From an uncultured Nitrososphaerota archaeon (GTDB lineage: Archaea > Thermoproteota > Nitrososphaeria > Nitrososphaerales > Nitrosopumilaceae), in NCBI GenBank assembly GCA_963701075.1, contig OY969559.1, positions 1,088,001 to 1,152,000 of the forward strand: 64,000 nucleotides of DNA. The letters are read 5' to 3'. Positions 17,868 to 57,730 of the stretch are shown here, in pieces. The position numbers and the translations under genes were made by a program. Below the pieces are notes generated by a model. That model had not been told where the DNA came from. It ran no database searches and saw only the letters and a program-made list of their open reading frames with translations. Position 1 is the first letter of the stretch. The number at the start of each line of letters is the position of its first letter.

Positions 17868-17925
17868 ATTAACATACTGCCATCAGCGTGATAGCGGATG
17901 GGATATCTTCTAATCTTAGATATTG

Positions 17926-17943
17926 ATTTCCAATTATGATATT
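17926..17943. promoter_or_regulatory. Box A (ATTTCCA-atta-TGATATT)
   Basis: 41 nt upstream of USP ATG 17984. Confidence 0.7.
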
Positions 17944-17983
17944 TTATAATTTACTTTTTATACGCAAGTTATACATGTAGAAT

Positions 17984-18412
17984 ATGATAAAACACATCAT
18001 GGTACCATATGATACATCAGAATCTTCTATCCGTGCATTTGAGTTTGCAGTTGATCTTGCAAAAAAATACAATTCAAGCATTAGTATTTTTTCATGTGTT
18101 CATCTACAGGTTCCAACCGATCCATACTTTGGGACAGCGTATGCAGAAACAACAAAACTATTGGAAAAAGACGCTATCAACTCAATATCAAAGTTAGAAC
18201 CAAGATTGAAAGAATCCAAGATACCGTTCAAGACTGAGGTATTGGAAGCAATTTCCATTACTGATGCCATAATATCATATGCGGAATCTCACCAAGTAGA
18301 TCTTATTGTGATGGGCTCGCGTGGACTGGGTGGATTTAAGAAACTATTGCTTGGGAGTGTCGCAAGTGGTGTCTCTCAACACTCAAAATGCCCAGTTTTA
18401 ATTATCAAGTAA
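17984..18412 (+). CDS. Universal stress protein
   Basis: IMVPYD...DLIVMGSRGLGGFKKLLLGSVASGV..CPVLII. Confidence 0.93.
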   Translation: MIKHIMVPYDTSESSIRAFEFAVDLAKKYNSSISIFSCVHLQVPTDPYFGTAYAETTKLLEKDAINSISKLEPRLKESKIPFKTEVLEAISITDAIISYAESHQVDLIVMGSRGLGGFKKLLLGSVASGVSQHSKCPVLIIK

Positions 18413-18453
18413 TACTGTTGAATCGTTGAGCGAGATAGATTACGGAAAACAAT

Positions 18454-18889
18454 CTATTTGACTATGAGAACTGGGATCTCCAAGTTGTTAAGAACCCCAT
18501 TAGTAACGCTGCCTAAATACTTGGTATCCGATGAGCTCTGACCTCTAGATCCCATTATTACTATATCAAACCTCTTTGATTTTGCAAAACCAACTATCGT
18601 TTTGACAATGCCAGGCGAGGTAATGATCTTTCCGTCAAATTCTATACCGTTCTTTGTTACACTTGATCTCAGCTTGAAGCATGATTTTTTCTGCACTTTT
18701 TATCAATTCTGTTCTGTATTTTTTTAACAGTGTAGGCGCTTTGGAAAACCCAGAGCTTGATATTACATAAAGTCCGGTTACTGTTCCGCTACTTTGCTTT
18801 GCAAGCGAAATTGCTACGTTTAAACCTCTTATTGAATTTGGGGAACCGTCCAACGGAACAAGAATTTTTTTTAGGGTATTTTGCGACAT
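18454..18889 (-). pseudogene. Universal stress protein, frameshifted (~18650-18695)
   Basis: N-half (ILVPLDGS) and C-half (DIVIMGSRG...LGSV) in different frames. Confidence 0.75.
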
Positions 18890-18932
18890 GTTTGTAAATC
18901 TACATCGTATACTTAAAAACCAGATATATCAA

Positions 18933-18950
18933 GTTATCAAAAATGAAATT
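18933..18950. promoter_or_regulatory. Box A (GTTATCA-aaaa-TGAAATT), shared by divergent USP genes
   Basis: 41 nt from ATG 18991 and 44 nt from ATG 18889; TATA-like element on both sides. Confidence 0.75.
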
Positions 18951-18990
18951 CTAAGGTCTCTTTAAATGGGCTGATTGATAATCTTTCTTT

Positions 18991-19419
18991 ATGTTTGAGC
19001 ACATCATGGTGCCATATGACAAGTCAGAACCTGCCAGTAGAGCACTTGAATATGCAATGGATCTTGCCAAGAAATACAGTTCAAAAATAAGTATTATAAC
19101 ATATGTGTCCCTGAACGTCGGTTATTCTGCAGATGGTGGTAGTTCATACGTGGAGATGGTAAAATTGCAAAAGAAATCAGCAGAATACACTCTCTCAAAA
19201 TTAGAACCAAAGTTACAAAAACTCAAAATTCCTTACTGCATTAAAGCAATTGAAGGAACATCCATCATTGAAACTTTAATTTCCTATGCAGAAATGCATC
19301 ACGTAAATCTTATAGTGATGGGCTCGCGTGGACTGGGTGGATTTAAGAAACTATTGCTTGGGAGTGTCGCAAGTGGAGTCTTACAGCATTCGGAGTGTCC
19401 TGTGTGGATAGTAAAATAG
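18991..19419 (+). CDS. Universal stress protein
   Basis: USP motifs; paralog of 17984. Confidence 0.93.
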   Translation: MFEHIMVPYDKSEPASRALEYAMDLAKKYSSKISIITYVSLNVGYSADGGSSYVEMVKLQKKSAEYTLSKLEPKLQKLKIPYCIKAIEGTSIIETLISYAEMHHVNLIVMGSRGLGGFKKLLLGSVASGVLQHSECPVWIVK

Positions 19420-19449
19420 GAATTTTGCTAGCCTTACATACCCAATAGC

Positions 19450-19468
19450 TGCAGTGCAGCTCACTGCA
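19450..19468. promoter_or_regulatory. Box B (TGCAGTG-cagct-CACTGCA)
   Basis: Perfect 7-5-7 palindrome 10 nt before TTAAAT (19479). Confidence 0.7.
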
Positions 19469-19515
19469 TACATAGTTGTTAAATTCTATTGAATCAATCC
19501 ACTATCGATCAGAAA

Positions 19516-19674
19516 ATGGTATCAAGCCAGAAGATTGGACTCTTGAACTTCTTTGGAGTAAAAAACTCAAGAAAATACATTCTCATTTGCATAAGGTGTG
19601 GTTCTGATAATATTCAGCGGAAACAAAACCTTATTGAATGCAGAGAATGCGGTAAAGTTCTTTCCACCAAATAG
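19516..19674 (+). CDS. Zinc-ribbon microprotein
   Basis: CIRCGSDNIQRKQNLIECRECG; degenerate paralog at 53.8-53.9 kb. Confidence 0.65.
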   Translation: MVSSQKIGLLNFFGVKNSRKYILICIRCGSDNIQRKQNLIECRECGKVLSTK

Positions 19675-19748
19675 TGCCAAATTGTAATAACAAAAGGCCA
19701 GATAGAGCAAAAGGCTTAACCAATAATGAACCAAGTCTTGTAGATGGA

Positions 19749-20642
19749 CTAGGATTTTTGCGCACTGAGCAATTTACGAATTGAGCGTAATTCTTGTCTG
19801 CGTTTTGCACCTGATTTTGGATAAGCCATTTTGAGTTCTTTTAGTGCATCTAAGATGATCTGTGAAATGATCAGTCTGGTGTTCTCTTTGTCATCTGCAG
19901 GAATGACATACCAAGGTGCCTCAGTCGTGCTTGTGGCACTCAGACAATCTTCATATGCTCTCATGTAATGCTTCCAAAATTTTCTCTCCTCTATATCTGC
20001 AAGGCTAAATTTCCAATTCTTTTCGGGCTCATCAATACGCTTTAGAAAACGTTTCCGTTGTTCTTCTTTTGAAATATGGAGGAAAAATTTGATTATGCGT
20101 GTTCCGTTGCGATGTAGATGGTTTTCCAAGTTCACTATAGAATGATATCGTTGATGCCACATTGTATGCTTATCCAACAATTCATTTGGAAGGCATTCAC
20201 TGTGGAGAATCTCTGGATGTACACGAACAATCAGTACCTCTTCATAATAAGAACGATTGAAGATACCTATTCGCCCCCTTTCAGGCAGACATTGAACAGT
20301 ACGCCATAAAAAATCATGCTTAAGTTCCTCATTGCTTGGATGTTTGAAGCTGAACACTTGACATCCTTGAGGATTGATGCCAGACATCACATGTTTGATA
20401 GCACTGTCTTTTCCTGCCGCATCCATTGCCTGAAAAATCAATAGTAACGAATAGCGGTTTGATGCATAGAGAAGATTTTGCAAGGAGCTTAGTTCTTCCA
20501 CATGTTTTCTGAGGACTTGGTTATACTGTTCCTTTGATTTGTACACGGGGTTCACAGTTGTTTTATAGTTACTGAGTTTCACCTTTTTTCCTGCAGGTAC
20601 AAGAAAATCATTGCAATTTATTTTCATCATGTCACCTTTCAT
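19749..20642 (-). CDS. ppk2: Polyphosphate kinase 2 family, class III-like
   Basis: [13 protein letters not shown] Walker [22 protein letters not shown]. Confidence 0.92.
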
Positions 20643-20922: not shown

Positions 20923-21399
20923 CTATATTCCCAATAATGATACAGTTTCACCATCTTTGTCGGAAGCTAGCACCTTACCTGATTCTTCCTTAGGGTCTAG
21001 TGAATAGACTGCTTTTGGTTTGAACATTATTACAGTAGGATGTTTATTCTTGCTTTGTTGTTCAAATATCTTCGATGATGTCTTGCCAGTGGCTGAGCGC
21101 GATATTGTTTCGATGATTTTTTCCCCCTTATTTTCATCAGTTATGAAACTCACCTTGCCTTTCATTTGGAATCCTCGTAATTGTTCTTTGTCAAAAACAG
21201 CCACACTAACCCAAGGTATTACTCGAAAATTTCCTTGGGATTTGTGTTTGAAAAAATCTAACCAATATATGGAATCATCTGTAAAATAAAATGCGGTCCT
21301 CGGTGATATGTTGGCTAATCCGTTTGGGTCGACTGAAGCAACCACTATGAACTTTTGTCTTTTCATCATGTAAAGTACATCTTCTGGAATTGTAACCAT
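20923..21399 (-). CDS. Pyridoxamine 5'-phosphate oxidase-like FMN-binding protein
   Basis: VVASVDPNGLANISPR...GFQMKGKV split-barrel pattern. Confidence 0.8.
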   Translation of the reverse strand: MVTIPEDVLYMMKRQKFIVVASVDPNGLANISPRTAFYFTDDSIYWLDFFKHKSQGNFRVIPWVSVAVFDKEQLRGFQMKGKVSFITDENKGEKIIETISRSATGKTSSKIFEQQSKNKHPTVIMFKPKAVYSLDPKEESGKVLASDKDGETVSLLGI

Positions 21400-21439
21400 G
21401 GGATTCCTTTCAATTTCTTTTAAATAAAAGTAATGATTG

Positions 21440-21457
21440 ATTATCTTGATTGATAAT
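21440..21457. promoter_or_regulatory. Box A (ATTATCT-tgat-TGATAAT), divergent
   Basis: 41 nt from both ATG 21399 and ATG 21498. Confidence 0.8.
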
Positions 21458-21497
21458 CTTCATTCTCGTTATATAACATAGACAAGACAAATAATGC

Positions 21498-22253
21498 ATG
21501 AAAATTATTGTCGCAGCAATAGTTTCAATACTTGTTTTAACTGGATTGTGTGATTTGGCATATGCTGAATCATCATATCAAATGGAAGGAAGTGGGGCTG
21601 CAGTGATGGATACTAATAATCCGCAAATGTACCAATCCATATTTAGAATGACACTGTCAAACCAATCAACCATTACAAAAGGAACATTTCTGGTATATGG
21701 AAGTGATGTGTACCTACATGCATACATGTTGCCTCAAAGCTGGTCATTTTTGTATAATGCAGACGGATCTTTTCATGGACAAGGCCCAGTTCAGACCACT
21801 CAAGGCCAATTCTTTGATGTTGCATTAGATGGTAACCGGGTATTTGCAACAAACACCGGTTCACTATGGAAAGTAAGCGCCGATATGAAAAACAACAATA
21901 CCAATATGATACTTGATTATTTAACTACTGGAATAGATCCACTTCCCACCGTAAACGTATCTTCAAATGCAACTGTAATGATTCCAAACGGCAACTCTAA
22001 CGTAACTGGCGTTGGTTTTTACATACCGCTAAATCTAGAGGCGATGCGAGGAACCACAGTAACATGGCAAAACGAGGATAACATAGGCCATGTAATACAG
22101 AGCCAAGACGGCCACGGAAACATCATACCTATCTTTAGCAGTGCCATATTGAAGACAGGAGATACATTTAGCTACAAATTTGACAAGCCAGGTGTGTATT
22201 ATTATTTTTGTACAATACATCCGTGGAGAACCGGCGTAGTAACCATATCCTGA
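21498..22253 (+). CDS. Secreted cupredoxin-domain protein
   Basis: Signal peptide; WQNEDNIGH...YYYFCTIHPWR (axial Met position is Arg). Confidence 0.85.
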   Translation: MKIIVAAIVSILVLTGLCDLAYAESSYQMEGSGAAVMDTNNPQMYQSIFRMTLSNQSTITKGTFLVYGSDVYLHAYMLPQSWSFLYNADGSFHGQGPVQTTQGQFFDVALDGNRVFATNTGSLWKVSADMKNNNTNMILDYLTTGIDPLPTVNVSSNATVMIPNGNSNVTGVGFYIPLNLEAMRGTTVTWQNEDNIGHVIQSQDGHGNIIPIFSSAILKTGDTFSYKFDKPGVYYYFCTIHPWRTGVVTIS

Positions 22254-22288
22254 GACATTTTTCATCATTATGTTGAACAGAAAAGGTG

Positions 22289-22306
22289 ATTCTCATGTTT
22301 GGTATT
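22289..22306. promoter_or_regulatory. Box A (ATTCTCA-tgtt-TGGTATT)
   Basis: 41 nt upstream of ATG 22347. Confidence 0.7.
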
Positions 22307-22346
22307 CGTGTACCGAAAATAAATTGCAAATGCTTGTCATAATTAT

Positions 22347-23111
22347 ATGCTGGTTCAACATGCAGGCAGTTTGGAAGGAAGATCCCTCGCCACTAGTATA
22401 GTTGCATCTAAGGGACGGAAAAAAAATCAAAATGTACTGAGAGTAGAAAACTTATCAAAAATTTACAGCTCAGAATCAGGAAAAGTAGTTGCATTATCAA
22501 ACATCAATTTTACAGTAAAAAAAGGCGAGTTTGTCTCTATTCTGGGACCATCTGGAAGTGGCAAGTCAACTCTGCTATACATGATAGGAGCATTAGACAG
22601 ACCTAGTGCCGGTAAGGTCTACATTAATGGAGTTGACGTATTCTCACTTAATGATTCGGAGATTGCAATGGTCAGAAACAGGCTAATTGGATATGTCTTC
22701 CAGTCGTATAATTTGATAAATAGATCAACAGTGCTAAAGAATGTCAAGATACCAGTAACAATACGTGGAATGGCTCGTACTGAGGCCAATTTCAAGGCGA
22801 TGGAGATTATGAAAGCACTAGGTATAGATGACAAAATTAATGAAAAACCTGCGAATCTAAGCGGTGGTCAACAGCAGAGGGTTGCTATTGCAAGAGCACT
22901 TGTCAATAACCCATCAATAATACTTGCTGATGAGCCAACTGGTAATTTGGATACGAAAACTGGCAGTGAAGTGTTTGAGATACTCAAAAAACTATCCCGC
23001 CAATTTAACAGAACAATAATCATGGTTACTCATAACGCCGAGCTTGCAGAAGAGACAGATCGGTCTATATTTATAAAAGACGGAAGTATTGAAAGAGAAA
23101 CGCGGCATTAA
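22347..23111 (+). CDS. ABC transporter ATP-binding protein (LolD/MacB type)
   Basis: GPSGSGKST, LSGGQQQRVAIARAL, ILADEPTGNLD. Confidence 0.93.
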   Translation: MLVQHAGSLEGRSLATSIVASKGRKKNQNVLRVENLSKIYSSESGKVVALSNINFTVKKGEFVSILGPSGSGKSTLLYMIGALDRPSAGKVYINGVDVFSLNDSEIAMVRNRLIGYVFQSYNLINRSTVLKNVKIPVTIRGMARTEANFKAMEIMKALGIDDKINEKPANLSGGQQQRVAIARALVNNPSIILADEPTGNLDTKTGSEVFEILKKLSRQFNRTIIMVTHNAELAEETDRSIFIKDGSIERETRH

Positions 23112-23298: not shown

Positions 23299-24840
23299 TT
23301 GCATCTTAAAGCTGATATTTTGGGAATAGATTCAGGTGGAAAACCAATTGTATTTCTTAACAAGTCTGATGCAGACGATATTGGAATAAGAGCTTCTGGC
23401 AGAATCACTTTAAATTTCAAAAAAAAGTTGCTCACTGCAATAGTTAACACAACAACGTCAGTCAATCGAGGCCATATTGGAATAAACGACGAAGTTAAAC
23501 GCATGCTTGGCCTAAAACAAAATTCTGACGTAGATGTAGAAATTGCGGCCTTTCCCAAATCACTCCAATTTATTCATAATAGATTGACTGGAAGGAGACT
23601 GTTATATCATGAAATTTACGAAATTGTAAAAGATGTAGTACAGGGGAACCTAAATGAAAATGAAATTTCTGCTTTTGTTACTGCATTAAGCATACAGGGA
23701 TTAGATTTGGATGAAGCAACAAGTCTTGCTTTGTCCATGGTTGAAACTGGAAAACAACTTGATCTTGGAAAAAAGATCATCGTGGACAAACACAGTATAG
23801 GTGGCGTGCCAGGGGACAAGACAACATTGCTAGTTGTTCCTATTGTGGCAGCTATGGGCCTTACAATTCCCAAGGTTTCCTCAAGGGCAATAACGTCAGC
23901 TGGCGGTACTGCCGACAGGGCTGAAACACTAATGCCTGTAGATCTAGAGATAAGCGAGATGGAACGCGTCATACGAAAAAGTAACGGCTGCATGGTATGG
24001 GGAGGATCGTTGGATCTTGCACCCGCCGATGATATTTTTGTTAGAAGTGAATATTCCTTGTACATTGATCCTCTGCTACTACCTTCCATCATGAGTAAGA
24101 AAAAGGCTGTTAATGCGACTCATCTTGTCATTGACATCCCAACGGGACGGGGATCAAAAATGCAGACTATCAGCGAGTCTGACTTTTTGGCTAAAGAACT
24201 AATCGAGCTTGGGCGAAGGCTTGGAATTCGTACACATTGTGTTTTGACAAATGGTGAAAAACCAATAGGGTTTACCATGGGGCCATCACTTGAAGTGAGA
24301 GAAGCTCTCTCCGTATTGATGAACAAAGTAGATGTTCCAGATCTTGTCGATAAAGTCTGTCACATCGCAGGAAGCATATTTGAAATGGTCGGAAAGAAAA
24401 ATGGCTACCACCTAGCAAGAGAGATCCTGCATAGTGGAAAAGCGGAGAAAAAAATGAGGGAAATTATAGGCCTGCAGGGAGGAAACTCGAAAGTAAAGAT
24501 TGAAGATTTGGCAATTGGCGAAGAAAAACATATGGTCAGAGCAAAAAAGCCCGGTCAAGTTCTATGGATGGACAATATTGCACTCATAGAAATTGCTCGA
24601 GCGGCAGGAGCTCCAAAGGACAAAGGCGCTGGCATTGTTTTTAACAAGAAGACTGGCGACAAGGTGCGAATTGGTGATGTTTTGTATACTATCTACGCCG
24701 AAAAACCGCGAAAACTCTCAAGAACAGTTGAACTACTATCAGAAACAGAGCCATTTGGAATAGGTGACAATGTAGAGATGCTCATACACAAAATAAAAGA
24801 ATCTTCGTTTGTAAAAAGATCATTTATGATAGACAGGTAG
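23299..24840 (+). CDS. AMP phosphorylase (archaeal thymidine phosphorylase family)
   Basis: N-terminal barrel extension, DKHSIGGVPG, KVSSRAITSAGGTAD, SIMSKKKA, ARAAGAPKDKGAG. Confidence 0.92.
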   Translation: MHLKADILGIDSGGKPIVFLNKSDADDIGIRASGRITLNFKKKLLTAIVNTTTSVNRGHIGINDEVKRMLGLKQNSDVDVEIAAFPKSLQFIHNRLTGRRLLYHEIYEIVKDVVQGNLNENEISAFVTALSIQGLDLDEATSLALSMVETGKQLDLGKKIIVDKHSIGGVPGDKTTLLVVPIVAAMGLTIPKVSSRAITSAGGTADRAETLMPVDLEISEMERVIRKSNGCMVWGGSLDLAPADDIFVRSEYSLYIDPLLLPSIMSKKKAVNATHLVIDIPTGRGSKMQTISESDFLAKELIELGRRLGIRTHCVLTNGEKPIGFTMGPSLEVREALSVLMNKVDVPDLVDKVCHIAGSIFEMVGKKNGYHLAREILHSGKAEKKMREIIGLQGGNSKVKIEDLAIGEEKHMVRAKKPGQVLWMDNIALIEIARAAGAPKDKGAGIVFNKKTGDKVRIGDVLYTIYAEKPRKLSRTVELLSETEPFGIGDNVEMLIHKIKESSFVKRSFMIDR

Positions 24841-24843
24841 TAC

Positions 24844-25677
24844 ATGAAGACACTTCAACAAGTAACGGATGACATAAGAGAATTCAGAATCCAAGGAGCA
24901 AACCAAATTGCACTGTACAGTTTATGCTTCTTAAAAAAAATTGCGCTTTGTTATGGATTTGGACTCAAATTCAAGACTGTATCACGACATTTGGAAAGGG
25001 CCAGACCAACCGCAGTAGTACTTCATAACTGTATTCAGATTATAAACACAAGTCCAAAAATTTCTACAATTGATACTTTGATTAATACGCTACGTGACAT
25101 GGGAGAAAAAGAAGCAGTATACTCGGCCAAGATTATAAAGAATGGTTCTACAATAATTACATACTGTCACTCGGGGGAAGCAATGTCATTTATCAAACAT
25201 GCGTGGATAAAATACAAAAAGAGATTTTCTGTGATTGCGTGCGAGACAGAACCTTTGGAACAAGGTGTAAGAACCGCAAAAGAGCTGGCAAAAGTGGGAA
25301 TCCCTGTAACCCTGATTGATGATAACGCGATCGGGTTCTTCATAAAATGTGCAGATATGGTAATTGTTGGTGCGGATGCATTACGAAAAGAAGGACTGGT
25401 TAACAAGATAGGAACTAGCCTTCTTGCACAGGCAGCAAATGATGCAGCCAAGCCATTCTATGTGATAGCCAGCTCGCTTAAGATTGACAAGAGGAGAAAA
25501 TTTGAGATCGAGGAGAGGCCTGCAAACGAGATATACAGAAAAATAATGCACAAAAGAGGGCTGGGTGGAATAAAGATACGAAATCCGGCCTTTGATACAA
25601 CTCCATGGAAATATGTTACTGCTGTAATAAACGAGAGAGGAGTCTTGACAAAGAATCAGCTGAGGAAAGTGATATGA
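24844..25677 (+). CDS. Ribose-1,5-bisphosphate isomerase (eIF-2B alpha/beta/delta family)
   Basis: RIQGA, RPTA, TYCHS, VGAD, NKIGT, NPAFDTTP; located between AMPpase and RuBisCO. Confidence 0.88.
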   Translation: MKTLQQVTDDIREFRIQGANQIALYSLCFLKKIALCYGFGLKFKTVSRHLERARPTAVVLHNCIQIINTSPKISTIDTLINTLRDMGEKEAVYSAKIIKNGSTIITYCHSGEAMSFIKHAWIKYKKRFSVIACETEPLEQGVRTAKELAKVGIPVTLIDDNAIGFFIKCADMVIVGADALRKEGLVNKIGTSLLAQAANDAAKPFYVIASSLKIDKRRKFEIEERPANEIYRKIMHKRGLGGIKIRNPAFDTTPWKYVTAVINERGVLTKNQLRKVI

Positions 25678-26963
25678 GGCACATCGATTGGTACAAAGAC
25701 TTTGTTGATTTAAAGTACAAGCCAAGCAAAACTGACGTAGTCTGTCTTTTCAGATTTGAACCATCTGATAAAGTATCGGTTGTTGAAGCAGCTGGTAGAA
25801 TAGCTTCTGAAAGCTCGGCTGGAACATGGACAACACTGACCAAGTTGCCAAAAACAATAAAAAAAGTAATGGCGACTTCTTTTGAGATAAATGGCAATTT
25901 TGCTAAGGTTGCATATCCAATCGAGATCTGGGAACCAGGAAACATATCACAGCTGTTAAGCGGTATTGCCGGAAATATTTTTGGGATGAAAGCATTAGAA
26001 AATCTCAGGCTTGTTGATGTATCTTTGCCCATTCAATATACCAAACATTTCAGAGGACCAGAGTTTGGAATAGAAGGAATTAGAAGAATTCTAAAAGTAA
26101 GAAAGAGACCAATTACAGGGGCAGTAGCAAAACCCAAGATAGGATGGAGTGCTGAAGAACATGCGACGATTGCCTATGAGACGTGGATTGGAGGGTTTGA
26201 TTTGGTAAAAGACGATGAAAACCTTACATCAACACAGTTTAACAAATTTGAACAACGCGTAAAGCTTTGTGCCAAGATGCGAGACAAGGCTGAAAAAGAG
26301 AGCGGAGAAAGAAAATCCGCACTGATAAACATAACTGGAGAAACTAATCAGATGACAAAGCGCGCTAAAATGCTGCATGATTTTGGATTTGAATATGCAA
26401 TGATAGATGTGGTTACAGTAGGTATGTCAGCATTGCAAACTTTGCGTGAGGTGTGTCATGACCATAATCTGGCAATACATGCGCACAGGGCAATGCATGC
26501 TGCATTTGACAGAAATCCAAGACATGGCATATCGATGCTGTTTCTTGCCAAGATCTGTCGATTGATAGGCGTCGACCAGCTTCACATAGGGACCGTGATA
26601 GGCAAACTTGTTGGAACGCGTCATGATGTTCTAGATATAAAAAACGCGATTACTAGTCAAAATAACAAGAGGTTTGGCAGCCTGAATCAAAATTGGAACA
26701 ACATCAAACCGGTTTTTCCAGTCTCTTCTGGAGGCATACACCCAGGAATCATACCTGATGTGTTAAAGATCATGGGAAATAACATAGTGTTACTGGTGAG
26801 TGGTGGAATACACGGTCATCCAAATGGTACCCGTGATGGAGCACGTGCTGCAATGCAGTCTATTGAAGCCTCAATGCAGAGGATCCCGTTATATCAATAC
26901 GCAAGATCACACAAAGAACTTGGAGATGCCTTGGCAAAGTGGGGCCGTCTTAGGCCTCAATGA
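25674..26963 (+). CDS. rbcL: Form III ribulose-1,5-bisphosphate carboxylase
   Basis: ESSAGTW, KPKIG, DLVKDDE carbamylation motif, HAHRAMH, GTVIGKL loop 6, SSGGIHP, GGIHGHP; ATG 25674 overlaps upstream stop (ATGA). Confidence 0.95.
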   Translation: MRHIDWYKDFVDLKYKPSKTDVVCLFRFEPSDKVSVVEAAGRIASESSAGTWTTLTKLPKTIKKVMATSFEINGNFAKVAYPIEIWEPGNISQLLSGIAGNIFGMKALENLRLVDVSLPIQYTKHFRGPEFGIEGIRRILKVRKRPITGAVAKPKIGWSAEEHATIAYETWIGGFDLVKDDENLTSTQFNKFEQRVKLCAKMRDKAEKESGERKSALINITGETNQMTKRAKMLHDFGFEYAMIDVVTVGMSALQTLREVCHDHNLAIHAHRAMHAAFDRNPRHGISMLFLAKICRLIGVDQLHIGTVIGKLVGTRHDVLDIKNAITSQNNKRFGSLNQNWNNIKPVFPVSSGGIHPGIIPDVLKIMGNNIVLLVSGGIHGHPNGTRDGARAAMQSIEASMQRIPLYQYARSHKELGDALAKWGRLRPQ

Positions 26964-27007: not shown

Positions 27008-27658
27008 TTATCTAATAATCACAACTGGACACTTGGCTTCTTCTGAAATTTTTCTGCTTACACTACCGAGTGCCATTATCTTGTTCAGTCTAGTCAATCC
27101 TCTACTGCCGATAACTATTAGGTCTATCTTGTTATCTCTTGCAAATTTTAGTATGGAATCAGCAGGTTTTCCAGTTATCACTTCGCAAAATGTATTGACT
27201 CCCGACTGCTTACATATTTTCATCTTTTCTTGGAGAACACTATTTGAATGATTTTTTTGTGGCTCTAAAATATCTTTATTTAATTTTTTTATCTTTTTGT
27301 TTACTTGATCTTGTATTATTATGGGTAATTGGTCTGTCTGGATATTGATGACATTTATTATGTATAATTCTGAACCAAACTCTTTTGCTATGTCAGTTGC
27401 CTCAATAAGTGCTTTTTTTGAATATTTTGAGTTATCATAAGGTACCAATATTTTGCCATATTTTTTCTTGCTAGGTAGAGATACGCCAGTACTTAGTTGT
27501 ACATCAATCCTTGATGCTGCATCATTTATTCTTTTTATATTTTGAAGAAAATCTTGATGATTGCCATATTTTGCATTTTTTAACATTACGCCTATCGTAT
27601 TTTTTATTATTGATACTTGCTTCCTTAATGAAAAATTATATTCGTAGTCCAAGTCCAT
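27008..27658 (-). CDS. Universal stress protein with N-terminal extension
   Basis: USP domain from ILVPYDNS preceded by ~65 aa helical segment. Confidence 0.85.
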   Translation of the reverse strand: MDLDYEYNFSLRKQVSIIKNTIGVMLKNAKYGNHQDFLQNIKRINDAASRIDVQLSTGVSLPSKKKYGKILVPYDNSKYSKKALIEATDIAKEFGSELYIINVINIQTDQLPIIIQDQVNKKIKKLNKDILEPQKNHSNSVLQEKMKICKQSGVNTFCEVITGKPADSILKFARDNKIDLIVIGSRGLTRLNKIMALGSVSRKISEEAKCPVVIIR

Positions 27659-27785: not shown

Positions 27786-28127
27786 CTAATTACTTGTATC
27801 AGAATTAGGAACGATTTCAACATCAAGTGAACCGCTTTTGAAACATGTTACAATGGACTTGATCTTTGATTTGTACAAAAAGTACTTTTTGCCATCCTGA
27901 CTTATGGAGCCGGAGATGCCAAGTAATTTGTGAGTATGTAGTAATTGCACTCTTCTGTATGTTGTGCTGATTGGAATACCACACTCTATACTTAGATCAA
28001 TGGTAGATTTTGGCATCTCAAGTGTAGATTCCAATATGGCACGGGAATACTTGTCAGCCAAGATCTCAAGCAAGACAGTCTTTGTTGTCTCTTCCTGTAC
28101 GGGTTTTGTCTGTAGTAAGACTTGCAT
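27786..28127 (-). CDS. Winged-helix (ArsR-like) transcription regulator, paralog 1
   Basis: LEILADKYSRAIL...PKS..DLS.ECGIPISTTYRRVQLL...LL...GKKYFLYKS. Confidence 0.85.
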   Translation of the reverse strand: MQVLLQTKPVQEETTKTVLLEILADKYSRAILESTLEMPKSTIDLSIECGIPISTTYRRVQLLHTHKLLGISGSISQDGKKYFLYKSKIKSIVTCFKSGSLDVEIVPNSDTSN

Positions 28128-28905: not shown

Positions 28906-28944
28906 AAGCCACTTTCTTTCATGTTTAATTTAAGATTCACTTAC

Positions 28945-28962
28945 AATATCAATTATGATAAT
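28945..28962. promoter_or_regulatory. Box A (AATATCA-atta-TGATAAT)
   Basis: 11 nt from minus-strand TTAAAT, 40 nt from ATG 28905. Confidence 0.8.
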
Positions 28963-29008
28963 CTATCTATAGTTTATCATGTATAAATAAGAGAGTAAGT
29001 ATAATGAA

Positions 29009-29026
29009 GTTTTCAATTATGATTAT
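29009..29026. promoter_or_regulatory. Box A (GTTTTCA-atta-TGATTAT)
   Basis: Upstream of the CBS-HPF gene; spacing non-canonical. Confidence 0.5.
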
Positions 29027-29111
29027 CTCAGATAAAAAAATGGCGTCCTTTTTATAGCCCTATGAATGTTTCAGAGAATGACGACATTGGGAATAATAGG
29101 AGATATCTGAG

Positions 29112-30546: not shown

Positions 30547-30564
30547 ATTATCATCCGTGATATT
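30547..30564. promoter_or_regulatory. Box A (ATTATCA-tccg-TGATATT)
   Basis: 10 nt before TTATAA, 42 nt before TTG 30606. Confidence 0.8.
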
Positions 30565-31346: not shown

Positions 31347-31350
31347 AGAA

Positions 31351-46843: not shown

Positions 46844-46878
46844 TACCTGAGTCATTTTTATACTAAAAATACTGCATA

Positions 46879-46896
46879 CATCTCAGATCTGATAAT
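46879..46896. promoter_or_regulatory. Box A (CATCTCA-gatc-TGATAAT)
   Basis: Second site in the same intergenic region. Confidence 0.65.
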
Positions 46897-47005
46897 CTAA
46901 AACTGAGAGCCGAAGACATGTAACTTCTAACCCTTCTCTGTTAGTTGAGGTTTTATGGTCCAATTTCTTTTTGGAGTTATAGGGACACCAACAGCTTGGC
47001 AATAT

Positions 47006-47023
47006 CTTTTCACGCCTGATAAT
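47006..47023. promoter_or_regulatory. Box A (CTTTTCA-cgcc-TGATAAT)
   Basis: 45 nt before ATG 47068. Confidence 0.65.
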
Positions 47024-47067
47024 CGGGGATCTAACTAATATCTTTACAAATACGATATTGATACTAG

Positions 47068-47463
47068 ATGCCCATATCGAAAAGCTTGGAATACCGTTTT
47101 GCCGCAGAGTTGTCGTTAATTTCAGGCATTATCATACTTGGTGCATCCATCTTGTACCTTCAACACGTTACATTTTTCCCTGATATGAGGTGGATGATGG
47201 GCCCTCAACTCCTAGGTCACGTTTTCATCACAAACGTAGTTGGCATTGTAAGTGGAACCATGGTAATTATTGCAGGAATTATGATCTATGTTCAACCTGT
47301 TCACATTAGAAAATGGGGAGTAATGGCATGGGTTTTTGCCAGCATAAGCTTCTTTGGAATAGGTGGTTTTTTCATAGGTGGAATATTAGGAATAATAGGA
47401 GGATTGCTAGCAGTGACTAAAGGTATTACATTCTTTGGTTTCAAGTCTAAAGGCAAAAAATAA
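47068..47463 (+). CDS. Small hypothetical membrane protein
   Basis: 3-4 TM helices, GGFFIGGILGIIGGLLA. Confidence 0.7.
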   Translation: MPISKSLEYRFAAELSLISGIIILGASILYLQHVTFFPDMRWMMGPQLLGHVFITNVVGIVSGTMVIIAGIMIYVQPVHIRKWGVMAWVFASISFFGIGGFFIGGILGIIGGLLAVTKGITFFGFKSKGKK

Positions 47464-47595
47464 CCTCGTGCTAAAACGTAGCATGAAAAATTATAATTTC
47501 TAGTATCTCATGCCAAAAAACATTCTATGGATCTTCTAGTTATAGGCTAGTAAGTGATGATTGAATTTTAATTTTGATAATCAATAGGCACCTTC

Positions 47596-47613
47596 AATAC
47601 CAGATTTGATATT
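47596..47613. promoter_or_regulatory. Box A (AATACCA-gatt-TGATATT); weaker second site at 47564-47581
   Basis: 11 nt before TTTAAT, 42 nt before ATG 47655. Confidence 0.75.
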
Positions 47614-47654
47614 CAACAATTGCCTTTAATAAAATCAAACATCCATTGTCTGCT

Positions 47655-48187: not shown

Positions 48188-49495
48188 ATGCACATACTTG
48201 ATAATCTTGACAAGTCTCAAAAAGTAATAGTACTAGGTTCGTGGTTTGGCTGGGCCCTAGACGGTTATGACCTGGTCCTAATGCTATTTGTGATATCATC
48301 TGTGAGCCAACTTTTCTTTCCTGTAAACGATCAAAGACTTGGTCTTCTTGCAACCTTTGCCGCCTATGCTGTTACTCTTGTGATGAGACCTCTTGGGGGA
48401 GCACTGTTTGGAGCCTTTGGCGACAGGCTTGGTAGAAAGAGAGCCATGATAATAACAATCATAGGATTTTCATGTGCTACATTTGCGACAGGTCTGCTTC
48501 CTACCTGGCAAGCTGTTGGGGTAATCTCACCCTTGCTCTTGATAACATTGAGGATCATGCAGGGTCTTTTTGCAGGAGGGGAATGGGGTAGCGGTGCGGT
48601 CATATCTATGGAATCTGTATCCAAGAAGGCAAGAGGAATTACCTCTGGATTTATACAAAGTGGATTTCCATTTGGGTTTCTCATTGCATCATTGGCATAT
48701 TGGATTGTATCGTCTGTTTATCATGACCAATCGTTTCTAGAGATTGGATGGCGTATAATGTTCTTCACAGGCATGATTCCAAGCTTGTTGGCACTCGTAC
48801 TTCGTCTTAAAATGAACGAGTCTGACATTTGGAAGGAAAAACTCGAACAACAGGCAATAGAGAAGGCACCATTAAAGCAAGTAGCATCAGGTCCAAATGG
48901 GAAAAGATTCTTTTCAACACTTATCATAACAACAGGATTGATGTATTCCTATTATGCATCAATTGGATTTATGCCGACATTGCTCTCACAATATGTAAAT
49001 CTAAAAGAGCCAGAGACGGCAACAATAATGGCAGCTGCTACCTTTTCATCAATGATTGGATACATCTTTGCTGGTTGGCTCAGCCAAAAGATAGGCAGGA
49101 TACGTACGATAGGCATCTTTGCCTCTCTGGCAGTGATTCTTGCGATTCCGTTGCTTATCGGTCTGTATGACTCATCTAACCATTTAGAAAGAACTGTGTA
49201 TGCTTCACTTCTCATACTTGTGGCGACAAGTGGATTTGGGCCCATTCCGGCATTTTTGTCGGAGAGATTTCCAACTCAGATAAGAAATACTTCAGCTGGA
49301 TTTGTCTTCAATGCGGGACTGATCATTGGAGCTTGGGCTCCTCTAGTTGCAATTGAATTGGGTTCAGAACCTAGTTCGTTACAACCAATACTCTTTGGAG
49401 CAAATCTTATGATTGGTTGCATATTGGTATTGATAGGGTTAAAGTTTAATCCAGAGACTCGTGATGTAGATTTACGATCTACAAATTCTAGTTAG
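48188..49495 (+). CDS. MFS transporter (metabolite/carboxylate:H+ symporter type)
   Basis: GWALDGYD, MRPLGG..FG..GDRLGRK, GGEWG, ERFPTQIR. Confidence 0.9.
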   Translation: MHILDNLDKSQKVIVLGSWFGWALDGYDLVLMLFVISSVSQLFFPVNDQRLGLLATFAAYAVTLVMRPLGGALFGAFGDRLGRKRAMIITIIGFSCATFATGLLPTWQAVGVISPLLLITLRIMQGLFAGGEWGSGAVISMESVSKKARGITSGFIQSGFPFGFLIASLAYWIVSSVYHDQSFLEIGWRIMFFTGMIPSLLALVLRLKMNESDIWKEKLEQQAIEKAPLKQVASGPNGKRFFSTLIITTGLMYSYYASIGFMPTLLSQYVNLKEPETATIMAAATFSSMIGYIFAGWLSQKIGRIRTIGIFASLAVILAIPLLIGLYDSSNHLERTVYASLLILVATSGFGPIPAFLSERFPTQIRNTSAGFVFNAGLIIGAWAPLVAIELGSEPSSLQPILFGANLMIGCILVLIGLKFNPETRDVDLRSTNSS

Positions 49496-49621
49496 TTTAC
49501 GACTGCATATTGTATTCAATAATCTGTAGATTTATGATTTGGTTGTAGTTTATGGAGTGTATTTTTCGCCGGGCATAGAGCCCGTTTGTCATCTTTGAGA
49601 ATCATATTTAGACAGTCATGA

Positions 49622-49639
49622 ATTATCAAGCGTGATAAT
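49622..49639. promoter_or_regulatory. Box A, perfect (ATTATCA-agcg-TGATAAT); weaker second site at 49585-49602
   Basis: 11 nt before TTTTTAT, 42 nt before ATG 49681. Confidence 0.85.
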
Positions 49640-49680
49640 CTAATTCCGTCTTTTTATCCCTGAAACAGTAACGAATCGTA

Positions 49681-50001
49681 ATGAAAACATCAAAGCTACA
49701 AGTCAAACCAATAGCAGCAGTGCTTAGCTTACTGGCTTTCGTTGCTGTTGTTGCCATGTCTCCACATGCTTTTGCGCAACAACCGTTTCAAGGTGGACAG
49801 GGACAACAAAACGGCATTGCCCTTGGATCATCATATAATGCACCAGCAGGTAGTACACAAAATCAGATTCCTGCACAAGTAGTGTATAGTGATTCCGACA
49901 ATCCTACTGGTCCGCTTCAAGGTATGGGATGGGGGATCGGAATGGCAATAGTGGGAGTCATGAGCGGCGTTGGAGTCTGGACAGCAGTACGAAGCAGATA
50001 A
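49681..50001 (+). CDS. Small secreted/membrane protein
   Basis: Signal peptide ending HAFA, Gln/Gly-rich linker, C-terminal TM helix. Confidence 0.7.
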   Translation: MKTSKLQVKPIAAVLSLLAFVAVVAMSPHAFAQQPFQGGQGQQNGIALGSSYNAPAGSTQNQIPAQVVYSDSDNPTGPLQGMGWGIGMAIVGVMSGVGVWTAVRSR

Positions 50002-50086
50002 GATCAAACTAGAGGTTGAAACGCTCTAGTTTTCTCCATTTTTTGTAATTTATGGTTTTTTTAGGTAGGTTACAACAAATTCAATT

Positions 50087-50104
50087 ATTCTCAATAATGA
50101 AAAT
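50087..50104. promoter_or_regulatory. Box A (ATTCTCA-ataa-TGAAAAT)
   Basis: 42 nt before ATG 50146. Confidence 0.8.
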
Positions 50105-50145
50105 CAAAGTAAAACTTCTTAAACAAACTTTCTAGATATAACATA

Positions 50146-50568: not shown

Positions 50569-50594
50569 GCATTTGACTAGTAATTGAGCTTTTA

Positions 50595-50612
50595 ATTACC
50601 ACTATTGGTAAT
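50595..50612. promoter_or_regulatory. Box A variant, perfect palindrome (ATTACCA-ctat-TGGTAAT)
   Basis: 11 nt before TTTTTAA, 42 nt before ATG 50654. Confidence 0.8.
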
Positions 50613-50653
50613 TAAATTTCATCTTTTTAAGCATCTAACTTGTAAGTAATACA

Positions 50654-51091
50654 ATGGATGAGTACTTTGCAAGAGATATAATGAAAGAACAGGTAGTCAC
50701 GGTTGATTTTGCGGCCACTGTAATGGATGCTGCTAAGAAGATGGATGAAAAAAACATTGGATGCGTAATTGTAATGGAGAAGGAAATGCCGATAGGCATA
50801 CTAACCGAGAGAGATTTTGTAAAAAAGATAGCAGTTAATGAAAAACCCATGTCAACTCCTGTAAGAAATGTAATGTCTTCGCCTTTGATCTCAATAGATC
50901 CTGATGCTACAGTCTGGGAGTTGGCTGAGCTCATGAAACTTAAACGAATTCATAAGGTGCCCGTGGTGCAAGAAAACAAACTGCTTGGAATTGTAACTAC
51001 TGCTGATATTACTAGTCTATGTAGCATAGGCTCTGATTCAGAGATGAGAAAAGTCTGCCAACAAATTCTTTTACGATTGCATCAATCCTAG
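50654..51091 (+). CDS. CBS-pair protein
   Basis: GILTERD...NVMSSP...GIVTTAD. Confidence 0.92.
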   Translation: MDEYFARDIMKEQVVTVDFAATVMDAAKKMDEKNIGCVIVMEKEMPIGILTERDFVKKIAVNEKPMSTPVRNVMSSPLISIDPDATVWELAELMKLKRIHKVPVVQENKLLGIVTTADITSLCSIGSDSEMRKVCQQILLRLHQS

Positions 51092-51999: not shown

Positions 52000-52040
52000 T
52001 AACTAATCTTTTGAAAAGTGGTATATTTAGACACAAGATA

Positions 52041-52058
52041 ATTATCAGGAGTGATTTT
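52041..52058. promoter_or_regulatory. Box A (ATTATCA-ggag-TGATTTT)
   Basis: 11 nt from minus-strand TAAATATA, 42 nt from GTG 51999. Confidence 0.8.
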
Positions 52059-52069
52059 TGTCATGTACG

Positions 52070-53101
52070 CTATGGTATTAGAATGGCTCTTCCCTGGATC
52101 TTTCCAGCTTCCAAGTTTTCAATGGCTTTGCCTACATCATCTAGTTTGAATGGATTGACAACAGTCTTGAGCTTGTTTGCACGAGCCAGGCTAATTACTT
52201 CAGTGAGTTCATTGTAATTTCCCCAAAGAGAGCCGATTACGCTGTACTCGTTTATGACTGACTCTACTATAGGTATGTTAAATGAGTTGCCCATTAATCC
52301 AACTAGAACTAGCGCTCCCCTCTTTTTCAGGCATGCTATGCCAAGATCCAGTGTATCTTTTGATGCCACTATATCTAAAACAACATCCACGCCGTGATTT
52401 CCAGTTATCTTGTTAAGAGATGATATGACGTCCTCGTTTTGGGAATTGATGACATAGTCTGAACCCATCTCTCTTGCAAGTTTAGTCTTGGCCTCACTTC
52501 GTTCCACGGTAATTACATTTGTTGGAGATAATAGTTTTAGATATTGTATAGCATAACTGCCAAGACCCCCAGCTCCGAACAATAGTGTAAAGCTATTGGG
52601 ATTTAGCATGTGACGAACCCTCTTTACTGCCCTGTATGGTGTGAGTCCTGCATCAGTCAAGGGGGCAACATATTTTGGATCCAAGCCAGGTGCCTTTACA
52701 AGAAAACGATATGATGGAATGTACATGTATTCTGCGTATCCTCCGTCGGATTGTGAGAGTCCTGGCCATGTAGGCAAGTTACAAAGTTGCTCGTCGCCTC
52801 CTTTGCAAAATTGACAGACTCCGCATCCCCAACCGCCAAATACTGCTACTACATCCCCTTTTGCAAGTCCACGCACAGACTCGCCAACTTCCTCGACATA
52901 GCCAGCCGTCTCATGGCCTATTGTCACAGGAAGCTTTACTGGAATTGTTTTCTGCCACTCTCCATGAATGAAATGAATATCGCTATGACATATTCCAGCC
53001 GCCCCTACCCGTATCACAACACTCTCTCCTTTTGGTTTTGGAAGATCTACTTCGTCTAGTTGTAATGGTTCTCCATAATTGTGTAGTCTTGCGGCCTTCA
53101 A
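52070..53101 (-). CDS. Zinc-dependent alcohol dehydrogenase
   Basis: CHSD, GHE, CGVCQFC..C, DAGLTPYRA, GAGGLG. Confidence 0.92.
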   Translation of the reverse strand: MKAARLHNYGEPLQLDEVDLPKPKGESVVIRVGAAGICHSDIHFIHGEWQKTIPVKLPVTIGHETAGYVEEVGESVRGLAKGDVVAVFGGWGCGVCQFCKGGDEQLCNLPTWPGLSQSDGGYAEYMYIPSYRFLVKAPGLDPKYVAPLTDAGLTPYRAVKRVRHMLNPNSFTLLFGAGGLGSYAIQYLKLLSPTNVITVERSEAKTKLAREMGSDYVINSQNEDVISSLNKITGNHGVDVVLDIVASKDTLDLGIACLKKRGALVLVGLMGNSFNIPIVESVINEYSVIGSLWGNYNELTEVISLARANKLKTVVNPFKLDDVGKAIENLEAGKIQGRAILIP

Positions 53102-53150
53102 AGTATATCTACAAATATGATCAATCCTGCTGTATTAAATTCAGAACTAC

Positions 53151-53168
53151 ATTATCATTTGTGAAAAT
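53151..53168. promoter_or_regulatory. Box A (ATTATCA-tttg-TGAAAAT)
   Basis: 11 nt from minus-strand TTTAATA upstream of the ADH gene. Confidence 0.8.
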
Positions 53169-53206
53169 AAGCAATCTCATCTGCCGACTTTGGCTGGCAA
53201 GATGAT

Positions 53207-54015: not shown

Positions 54016-54106
54016 AACACTTTATCACAGATGGCATTTTACATGCATAAATTTTAAGATTGTATTTTTATTCAAATTCGAAAAAACCGACTCGATCAAA
54101 TTTATC

Positions 54107-54124
54107 ATTCTCAAAGATGATAAT
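54107..54124. promoter_or_regulatory. Box A (ATTCTCA-aaga-TGATAAT)
   Basis: 11 nt before TTTAAA, 42 nt before ATG 54166. Confidence 0.82.
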
Positions 54125-54165
54125 GGTGTTTTCGTTTTAAATAATATTTTACAGATAAGAATAAC

Positions 54166-54498
54166 ATGTCACAAAATGTAGAGACGCAGTACGATGGTTT
54201 CTTGGATCAGATTACCAGCAAACTCGGAAAGATTGATCTCAAGTTGGCAACTGATGTGATGTATTATGAGAGAAAATTTACTGATGTAGAACCCAAAGTT
54301 GAACTAGATGTACACTATAGAAACGGAACCAACATGGACAAGAAAAAATATGAACTAGAAGCAAGTTACATGGTTGCCCGAGAGGGAGAAAACGGCATTC
54401 GAGCAGTTGGTTTGGCATCGTTGGCTGACATACTTAAACTAGCAAAAGATCCTGACATTGAAAAGATTGATGGATTTGCTACCTGTGCGTCTTACTAG
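54166..54498 (+). CDS. Hypothetical protein
   Basis: 110 aa ORF with a canonical box A promoter. Confidence 0.7.
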   Translation: MSQNVETQYDGFLDQITSKLGKIDLKLATDVMYYERKFTDVEPKVELDVHYRNGTNMDKKKYELEASYMVAREGENGIRAVGLASLADILKLAKDPDIEKIDGFATCASY

Positions 54499-54518: not shown

Positions 54519-55097
54519 TTAGTAATCATGTTCGCTAAAATCCGATCCTAGGGCACTACTAACTATGGCCGTATTTGGGGTGGTACGTGATTTAACTGCA
54601 AGGTTTGGCATGAATTGATGGAAGATTTCTTTTAAAATCATCTCTGTAAAAAGAGACCATTTGATGCCAAGATTGTGTTGTACTATAAAATGATGAACCT
54701 CACCTTCTATTCTGTGATCTGATGTCATACCGGATGCCCTCATGTAATCCTCAAAAGCCTCGATTGCACGCTTCAGATCATAACTTCCCTTCATGAACAT
54801 TACCCAGTCCTTCACCAGAGGAACCATGACATTGATTATCTTGTTCATGGACTCTCCTTCCATCTCTTCGCCTAATGTCTTCAAGACATCCCTTGGAACG
54901 GGTATCATTCCAATATTTTCTGCAAACCTATCCCAGTTGACATATTTTTCTAAAATCTGCTTTACAAGTACATTTTGAGAGATTTTTCTCTGCATTGCCT
55001 CTGTTTCTAGCTCTTCTACTACGTGTACCGGTAGCCTATAGCTTATGCTTCTGGTATCCTCATGTTTTGTAGGATGGGGCTTTCTTGTAACGCTCAT
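54519..55097 (-). CDS. Ribbon-helix-helix protein with C-terminal domain
   Basis: TRSISYRLPVHVVEELETEAMQRKISQNVLVKQILEKYV RHH pattern. Confidence 0.65.
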   Translation of the reverse strand: MSVTRKPHPTKHEDTRSISYRLPVHVVEELETEAMQRKISQNVLVKQILEKYVNWDRFAENIGMIPVPRDVLKTLGEEMEGESMNKIINVMVPLVKDWVMFMKGSYDLKRAIEAFEDYMRASGMTSDHRIEGEVHHFIVQHNLGIKWSLFTEMILKEIFHQFMPNLAVKSRTTPNTAIVSSALGSDFSEHDY

Positions 55098-55208: not shown

Positions 55209-55718
55209 CTATTTTTTTATGTGATCTTTGTCTATGTGATTGCATACAGATTTTGTATCTTTGAATTGCTTTGAACAGTATGGACAATACGTTTTATCAG
55301 CTATCTCTAATTCTGGGAGTAGAAGATCATGTCTCTCAAGGTTCCCGCAGACCATTTTTTGTGTAATAAGACCAATTGGGCGTTTGTCCATCACTACCAA
55401 CCTACGTATATCGTGTTTTCTCATAATCTCTAATGCTTCTCTGACTAGAGATGTTTTTTGTATCGTTATCAAAGGACTCTTTGTGATCTGCTTCAATGTA
55501 GTTTTTGTTGGATCTAATCCTTTTGCTACTACATCATACAGGATATCTTTCTCAGTTACAATGCCTGTTATCTTGCTATTCTCAAATACCAGGATGCTAT
55601 CTATCTTAGACTCTGCCATGGCTTGGGCTGCATCTTGTATGGTAAGGTTACTCTCAACAGTAGTCATTTTGGGATTGGTGAATTTGGAAACTGGCTCGTT
55701 GAGAAGATCTAATGCCAT
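55209..55718 (-). CDS. CBS pair + C2H2 zinc finger
   Basis: CBS pair followed by CPYCSKQF......NHIDKDH. Confidence 0.88.
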   Translation of the reverse strand: MALDLLNEPVSKFTNPKMTTVESNLTIQDAAQAMAESKIDSILVFENSKITGIVTEKDILYDVVAKGLDPTKTTLKQITKSPLITIQKTSLVREALEIMRKHDIRRLVVMDKRPIGLITQKMVCGNLERHDLLLPELEIADKTYCPYCSKQFKDTKSVCNHIDKDHIKK

Positions 55719-55835
55719 GTGATATGATGCTCCTGTATCTTGATTTAATTTTGGAGGTATTTATATGATTGATGACGAGAAACCTCTTTCTGTATGGGCT
55801 ACACGTTCAAGAATTGGACTTGTGTATGATTTGTA

Positions 55836-55854
55836 TGCATTGCCGTGCAATGCG
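55836..55854. promoter_or_regulatory. Box B (TGCATTG-ccgtg-CAATGCG)
   Basis: 10 nt before TTATAT (55865) of wHTH paralog 2. Confidence 0.7.
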
Positions 55855-55892
55855 GTCCTACTGGTTATATCAAATATTATTGAATACGACAT

Positions 55893-56231
55893 ATGCAAGT
55901 ATTGCTACAAGGAAAACAGGTACAGGAAGAGACAACAAAAGATGTCTTGCTTGAGATCTTGGCAGACAAGTACTCTAGAACCATACTAGAATCCACAATA
56001 GATATGCCAAAATCAGCCATTGATATCACCCATGAGTGTGGCATACCAATCAGCACCGCTTATCGCAGAGTGCAAATGTTACACAGACACAAACTGCTTG
56101 GCATCTCTGGTTCAATCAGCCAAGATGGTAAAAAGTACTTTTTGTACAAATCCAAAGTCAAGTCAATCATGGCGTGTTTCAACAATGGTTCACTTGAAGT
56201 TGAGATTGTTCCTAATTCTGCATTAACTTAG
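55893..56231 (+). CDS. Winged-helix (ArsR-like) transcription regulator, paralog 2
   Basis: Highly similar to 27786-28127. Confidence 0.85.
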   Translation: MQVLLQGKQVQEETTKDVLLEILADKYSRTILESTIDMPKSAIDITHECGIPISTAYRRVQMLHRHKLLGISGSISQDGKKYFLYKSKVKSIMACFNNGSLEVEIVPNSALT

Positions 56232-56241
56232 AATTAGGAAC
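56208..56241 (+). other. Inverted repeat across the wHTH stop codon
   Basis: GTTCCTAATTCT-10 nt-AGAATTAGGAAC; shorter equivalent at 27783-27811. Confidence 0.5.
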
Positions 56242-56261
56242 TGCAAAAATTTTTCGAGATG

Positions 56262-56279
56262 AGAATCATGTATGAGAAT
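56262..56279. promoter_or_regulatory. Box A (AGAATCA-tgta-TGAGAAT)
   Basis: 11 nt before TTTAAA, 41 nt before ATG 56320. Confidence 0.7.
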
Positions 56280-56319
56280 AGAGCCGGCATTTTAAATGTG
56301 ATTAAAGTGGAGGTATGGT

Positions 56320-57180
56320 ATGATATCTAAGATACAGCAATTCACATCATCTGTTATAACATTACAACCCGAAGATACTATTAATGATGCATTATTTTTA
56401 ATGCAAAAAAACGATATAAAACGAATTGTTATTGTACAGAACAATTTTCCTATTGGAATAGTTACAGAGCGTGATATAGGAAGATTCTTGGAGTACGACA
56501 AGACAACAAAAGCACTTGACAAAATACCTGTTCAGAATATAATGAGTAGAAGCCTAGTTACAATATCTGCAGAAGATCATGATATTGCAATACAGTCAGC
56601 TATTAGAATGGATACATTTCAAATAAGCTCTGTTGTTGTAGTGGATAACGACGGAAATCTAGCTGGAATTATAACAAAGTCTGATTTGACAAGGATTTTT
56701 TCCAGTCTGTATAGCCGAGTCTACAAAGTTTCTGATTACATGTCAAAGAAGATAATCACCTGCCGCAAATCAGATTCGCTAACATTTGCTTTGGATATGT
56801 TAAACAAAAACAAGATCTCAAGATTGGTAGTTACTGATAACGAAGGAAAACCTATAGGTGTGATTACATATGATACGTTTCTAAGAAACAGCGGTTTTTT
56901 CAAGGCAAATAAAAGTACACGTAACTATCTTTTACCCAGTATCGATGCAAAGGAGATGAGGGTTGGAAATCTAATAAAAGATGAACTGCTTACAGTCACG
57001 ACCGAAGACGATTTGGCTATTGCTGCTAAATTAATGACAGATTTCAAGGTAAGTGGAATACCAGTCGTTGACCGTGAGGGATCTCTTGAGGGCGTCATAA
57101 GTTCTACCGATGTTGTAAATGCATACTCTGAGGTAGAGACACACTTTCGTTTGATAAAGAAAGATCCGCATTTTGATTAG
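56320..57180 (+). CDS. 4xCBS protein
   Basis: GIVTERD, GIITKSD, GVITYD, GVISSTD. Confidence 0.9.
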   Translation: MISKIQQFTSSVITLQPEDTINDALFLMQKNDIKRIVIVQNNFPIGIVTERDIGRFLEYDKTTKALDKIPVQNIMSRSLVTISAEDHDIAIQSAIRMDTFQISSVVVVDNDGNLAGIITKSDLTRIFSSLYSRVYKVSDYMSKKIITCRKSDSLTFALDMLNKNKISRLVVTDNEGKPIGVITYDTFLRNSGFFKANKSTRNYLLPSIDAKEMRVGNLIKDELLTVTTEDDLAIAAKLMTDFKVSGIPVVDREGSLEGVISSTDVVNAYSEVETHFRLIKKDPHFD

Positions 57181-57204
57181 TAAAGTTATCGCAAAGAAGA
57201 TGTA

Positions 57205-57222
57205 ATTCTTAGAACTGATAAT
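57205..57222. promoter_or_regulatory. Box A (ATTCTTA-gaac-TGATAAT)
   Basis: 11 nt before TTTTTAA, 42 nt before ATG 57264. Confidence 0.78.
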
Positions 57223-57263
57223 CTGATCCCATCTTTTTAACTATGAAGTAACATAGATTTGTA

Positions 57264-57693
57264 ATGGAAACCCTAGTGAGTGATATTATGAAGAACCAAG
57301 TAATTTCGATTGATTCTTCAATGTCAGTCAAGGATGCAGCTGAAAATGATGTCCGATTCTGGAGTTGGCTGCTTGGTTGTTATCCGGGAAAATATTCCAG
57401 TAGGCATATTAACTGAAAGAGATTTTGTAACAAGAATTGTTTTTCTTGCAGAACCATCATCCATGCCAGTACGAGATGTAATGTCTTCACCTTTGATAGC
57501 AATCCGTCCAAAAGAAACAATTAGGAATTTAGCAGAGTTAATGAAAGAGAAAAAAATTCACAAGGTCCCTGTCGTAGACGGAAACAAGCTTGTAGGAATT
57601 GTGACTGCAACCGACTTGATAAGAAAATGTGTCATTGGATCTGATTTAGATATGAAACAAATTTGCAGCTCTTTTGCTCAGATGGCATTTTGA
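57264..57693 (+). pseudogene. CBS-pair protein, frameshifted at ~57345
   Basis: METLVSDIMKNQVISIDSSMSVKDAA in one frame, MMSDSGVGCLVV... in the next; paralog of 50654. Confidence 0.75.
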
Positions 57694-57730
57694 ATTGGTA
57701 ACTGCCATATCTGTAGAACACCTAATGCAG

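Follow-up and report, generated by a model that had tools for sequence, protein, structure and literature searches.

We have found that USP and CBS genes are concentrated far beyond chance in a 40 kb chromosomal island of an ammonia-oxidising archaeon, at positions 17868-57730 of the window (the 64,000-nucleotide stretch analysed here). The island unites most of the stress-sensor genes of this genome with probable factors of ribosome hibernation and enzymes that recycle AMP. A palindromic promoter box shared by many of them argues that the genes behind it would form a regulon.

Gene content and conservation of the island

Pfam scans of the 52 island ORFs confirm the gene content listed in an earlier sequence-only reading (Table 1). 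The island makes up 2.08% of the 1,915,938 bases of the genome and holds 10 of its 18 USP genes (20 Pfam matches genome-wide) and 11 of its 15 CBS genes (38 matches). Clustering of this degree far exceeds chance (binomial P = 6e-13 for USP and 4e-16 for CBS, values that are generous because of tandem duplication). The ten USP genes comprise nine intact copies and one split across two frames (18454-18889-), likely a pseudogene or a sequencing error. The earlier count of 11 CBS proteins holds if the M50-CBS protease (44788-) is included, and not if it is listed separately; a twelfth CBS gene, encoding an XRE-HTH-CBS protein (57731-58285-), lies immediately outside. The two Hsp20 genes, PPK2, PNPOx, PRTase and DLH pair, PhaC-like gene, ADH and two small wHTH regulators were likewise recovered. 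Two cupredoxins, two ABC ATPases, PAC2, an ATP-cone protein and APC and MFS transporters are also present and had gone unlisted.

The sequence-only reading had implied that the island is unique, and had proposed a synteny comparison. The block proves to be syntenic in at least four genera of the family, although its chromosomal site differs. Such conservation across several genera argues for an old family feature with a varying site. No integrase, tRNA or att repeat was found for the island. The flanking XRE-HTH-CBS gene remains with ppdK where the island sits elsewhere, and adjoins mce in genomes G020 and G013.

A palindromic promoter box

The promoter motif that had been proposed was found and measured, and the box itself is new. 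It is a 20-bp palindrome, GATTATCA-N4-TGATAATC, that lies 38-41 nt upstream of the start codon, with a TATA-like box after it. It marks 17 promoters of the island and 11 in the rest of the genome, 28 in all. Orthologous promoters of other species retain the palindrome while its spacer varies, which argues that the genes behind it are one co-regulated unit. Box spacing also bears on start codons. The CBS pair at 33686+ probably starts at 33735, as a gap of 39 gives a 149-aa protein here and in three other species; a gap of 38 suggests a later start, and 170 aa, for the Hsp20 at 40897-. The cupredoxin at 43223+ probably also starts later, the motif falling inside its longest ORF.

Candidate regulators

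The two wHTH proteins (27786-, 55893+) are 83% identical to each other and match HTH_IclR/HTH_20 weakly; a third paralogue elsewhere in the genome passes HTH_20. A further candidate regulator is the 192-aa RHH-like protein (54519-), which is 64-89% identical across species and genera and whose gene is paired with a wHTH gene in other genera. The CBS-zinc ribbon gene (55209-) adjoins it on the same strand.

Table 1. Genes and palindromic boxes of the island and its flank (gap, motif-to-ATG distance in nt; E-values are Pfam unless stated).
Feature	Position	Strand	Details
Box	17925..17944		16.6 bits; gap 39 to USP 17984
USP, 142 aa	17984..18412	+	Usp 2.3e-31; ATP motif G-2x-G-9x-G-S
USP, split	18454..18889	-	two ORFs match Usp positions 3-68, 92-141; in-frame stops
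Box	18932..18951		16.4 bits; between two divergent USP genes
USP, 142 aa	18991..19419	+	Usp 2.4e-29
PPK2-type ADP-polyphosphate phosphotransferase	19749..20642	-	PPK2 7.8e-68; NCBIfam NF042973 516 bits (cut-off 450)
PNPOx-like FMN-binding protein	20923..21399	-	PNPOx_N 2.9e-10
Box, perfect	21439..21458		19.1 bits; gap 39 to both PNPOx and cupredoxin
Secreted cupredoxin	21498..22253	+	Copper-bind 6.9e-6
Box	22288..22307		18.5 bits; gap 39 to ABC ATPase
ABC ATPase	22347..23111	+	ABC_tran 5.5e-36
AMP phosphorylase	23299..24840	+	NCBIfam TIGR03327 568 bits (cut-off 535)
IF-2B family isomerase	24844..25677	+	IF-2B 4.3e-55; TIGR00511 181 bits (under cut-off 314)
Type III RuBisCO	25605..26963	+	TIGR03326 576 bits (cut-off 497), match from residue 32
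USP, 66-aa N-terminal extension	27008..27658	-	Usp 8e-30, residues 67-216
Small wHTH regulator, copy 1	27786..28127	-	weak HTH_IclR; TGCA-rich conserved element upstream of TATA box
USP, 141 aa	28480..28905	-	Usp 1.6e-28
Box	28944..28963		21.0 bits; gap 38 to USP 28480-
Box	29008..29027		14.8 bits; 84 nt upstream of HibA-like gene
HibA/AHA-type, 388 aa	29112..30278	+	4xCBS + C-terminal HPF/RaiA fold
Box	30546..30565		20.9 bits; gap 40 to PAC2
PAC2 family	30606..31346	+	PAC2 5.3e-30
Hsp20	31294..31746	+	HSP20 1.3e-14
ATP-cone + PD-(D/E)XK-like protein	31847..32689	+	ATP-cone 3.8e-11, Mrr_cat 2.8e-4; PADLOC CARF_PDDEXK 4.6e-5
USP, 148 aa	32686..33132	-	Usp 3.2e-27; no ATP motif (regex)
Conserved 89-aa protein	33133..33402	-	no Pfam match; orthologues adjoin USP or Hsp20 in other genera
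Box	33675..33694		22.2 bits; gap 39 to CBS pair
CBS pair	33686..34183	+	CBS 4.9e-25
4xCBS, SriC-like	34256..35122	-	4 CBS stretches (Pfam)
Box	35163..35182		18.5 bits; gap 40 to SriC-like 34256-
Phosphoribosyltransferase	35204..35881	-	Pribosyltran 2.5e-22
Dienelactone-hydrolase-like alpha/beta hydrolase	35848..36528	-	DLH 2.6e-8, PETase 8.3e-9
Box, distal of tandem pair	36720..36739		22.1 bits; upstream of USP 36823
Box	36763..36782		18.8 bits; gap 40 to USP 36823
USP, 151 aa	36823..37278	+	Usp 6.2e-26
152-aa protein	37297..37755	+	N-terminal hydrophobic stretch; no Pfam match
APC-family amino acid permease	37783..39117	+	AA_permease 8e-53
ABC-2 permease, frameshift-broken	39091..39874	-	two ORFs match ABC2_membrane positions 2-154, 157-209
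ABC ATPase	39855..40826	-	ABC_tran 2.1e-34
Box	40849..40868		15.9 bits; 22 nt upstream of ABC ATPase 39855-
Hsp20	40897..41493	-	HSP20 2.5e-21
Box	41448..41467		17.5 bits; between Hsp20 and PhaC-like genes
PhaC-like alpha/beta hydrolase	41528..42862	+	TIGR01836 class III PhaC 313 bits (under cut-off 365); PhaC_N 3.8e-9
Membrane-anchored cupredoxin	43223..43915	+	Copper-bind 3.1e-6
Box	43228..43247		19.5 bits; upstream of second cupredoxin
Box	43939..43958		15.8 bits; upstream of 4xCBS 43993
4xCBS, SriA/SriB-like	43993..44778	+	4 CBS stretches (Pfam)
M50 site-2 protease + CBS pair	44788..45960	-	Peptidase_M50 7.5e-22, CBS 1.3e-17
4xCBS, SriA-like	46006..46782	-	top PDB match 9znf_4, 3.2e-16
Box	46878..46897		16.0 bits; upstream of 4xCBS 46006-
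Box	47005..47024		15.0 bits; upstream of DUF6114
DUF6114 membrane protein	47068..47463	+	DUF6114 1.4e-7
Box	47563..47582		15.3 bits; upstream of USP 47646
Box	47595..47614		16.6 bits; upstream of USP 47646
USP, 151 aa	47646..48101	+	Usp 1e-31
MFS transporter	48188..49495	+	MFS_1 4.5e-30
Box	49621..49640		22.1 bits; gap 40 to 106-aa gene
106-aa secreted or membrane protein	49681..50001	+	no Pfam match; strong motif, gap 40
Box	50086..50105		17.5 bits; gap 40 to USP 50146
USP, 140 aa	50146..50568	+	Usp 2.2e-27
Box	50594..50613		15.6 bits; gap 40 to CBS pair 50654
CBS pair	50654..51091	+	CBS 1e-28; PDB matches include ST2348, Rv2626c at 1.2e-12
CBS protein, 290 aa	51127..51999	-	CBS 3.9e-16; weak further CBS in C-terminal half
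Box	52040..52059		15.4 bits; gap 40 to CBS gene 51127-
Zn-dependent alcohol dehydrogenase family	52070..53101	-	ADH_zinc_N 1.1e-28, ADH_N 1.3e-27
Box	53150..53169		17.4 bits; 48 nt upstream of ADH
USP, 168 aa	53207..53713	-	Usp 3.3e-30; motif-spaced start gives 156 aa
Box	54106..54125		19.3 bits; gap 40 to 110-aa gene
110-aa protein, Nitrososphaerota-only family	54166..54498	+	no Pfam match; Atlas clusters are Nitrososphaerota hypotheticals
192-aa protein, N-terminal RHH-like motif	54519..55097	-	weak CopG/RHH 1e-3
CBS pair + C-terminal zinc ribbon	55209..55718	-	CBS 8.9e-22, zf-Di19 2e-4
Small wHTH regulator, copy 2	55893..56231	+	87-89% identical in G020, G043
4xCBS, SriC-like	56320..57180	+	top PDB match 9zni_6 (SriC) 1.4e-20, then SriD 2.2e-17
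Box	57204..57223		16.0 bits; upstream of CBS pair 57310
CBS pair	57310..57693	+	CBS 2.8e-22
XRE-HTH + CBS-pair regulator (flank)	57731..58285	-	HTH_3 1.6e-11, CBS 4.2e-19

Probable ribosome hibernation factors and enzymes of AMP recycling

The HPF-like factor named earlier is real even though Pfam PF02482 has no match anywhere in this genome: the CBS protein at 29112-30278 carries it as its C-terminal domain. The AF2 model of the protein has a pLDDT of 83.5. For the C-terminal model the top Foldseek matches are HPF/RaiA/pY structures (best E 5.7e-6), and orthologues match Pfam HPF in the corresponding aligned region. The CBS module resembles MJ1225, AMPK gamma, SriD, SriA and Dri. SriA, SriB and SriC, archaeal ribosome-hibernation factors with solved structures, are among the best PDB relatives of four further 4xCBS proteins of the island. 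The protein at 34256- matches 9zni_6 (SriC, 2.3e-25) best and Dri next; that at 43993+ matches 3ddj and MJ1225, then 9znf_5 (1.5e-13) and 9znf_4 (5.8e-13). The HibA/AHA architecture and the Sri-type relatives are both new.

Missing from the earlier list was an operon for AMP phosphorylase, an IF-2B-family isomerase and type III RuBisCO (23299-26963); its presence in the island, together with the ADP-polyphosphate phosphotransferase, is new. The isomerase (24844+) is a probable ribose-1,5-bisphosphate isomerase, and the RuBisCO (25605+) probably starts about 30 codons downstream of the first codon of its ORF. The DLH and PRTase genes (35848-, 35204-) overlap by 34 nt, and the PRTase has many bacterial PRT-hydrolase fusion relatives (39-48% identity).

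Relation to the DosR regulon and the dormancy reading

The sequence-only reading had likened the island to the DosR regulon. The likeness stands at the family level for the members tested, an island CBS pair matching Rv2626c and an island USP matching TB31.7. Homologous regulation, in contrast, is not supported: no DosR-type (REC+GerE) regulator exists, and the archaeal palindrome is unrelated to the DosR motif. The parallel is one of functional convergence. Kinase, receiver and GerE domains were not found in the island by Pfam, in keeping with the sensor kinase already noted as absent.

Hypoxia, proposed as part of the dormancy programme, is not supported as the signal. In published data on ammonia-oxidising archaea, USP, CBS and Hsp20 respond to hypoxia in sponge symbionts, but also to heat, and not to ammonia starvation, in N. 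maritimus. The earlier interpretation is supported in part: the co-regulated unit, the dormancy role and the tested DosR family overlap have support, whereas hypoxia, DosR regulatory homology and the implied uniqueness do not. For dormancy or hibernation there is independent evidence that the sequence-only reading lacked: one protein has the HibA/AHA architecture and four others are Sri-related. Taken as a whole, the island points to a shutdown programme for low-energy times in this ammonia-oxidising archaeon.

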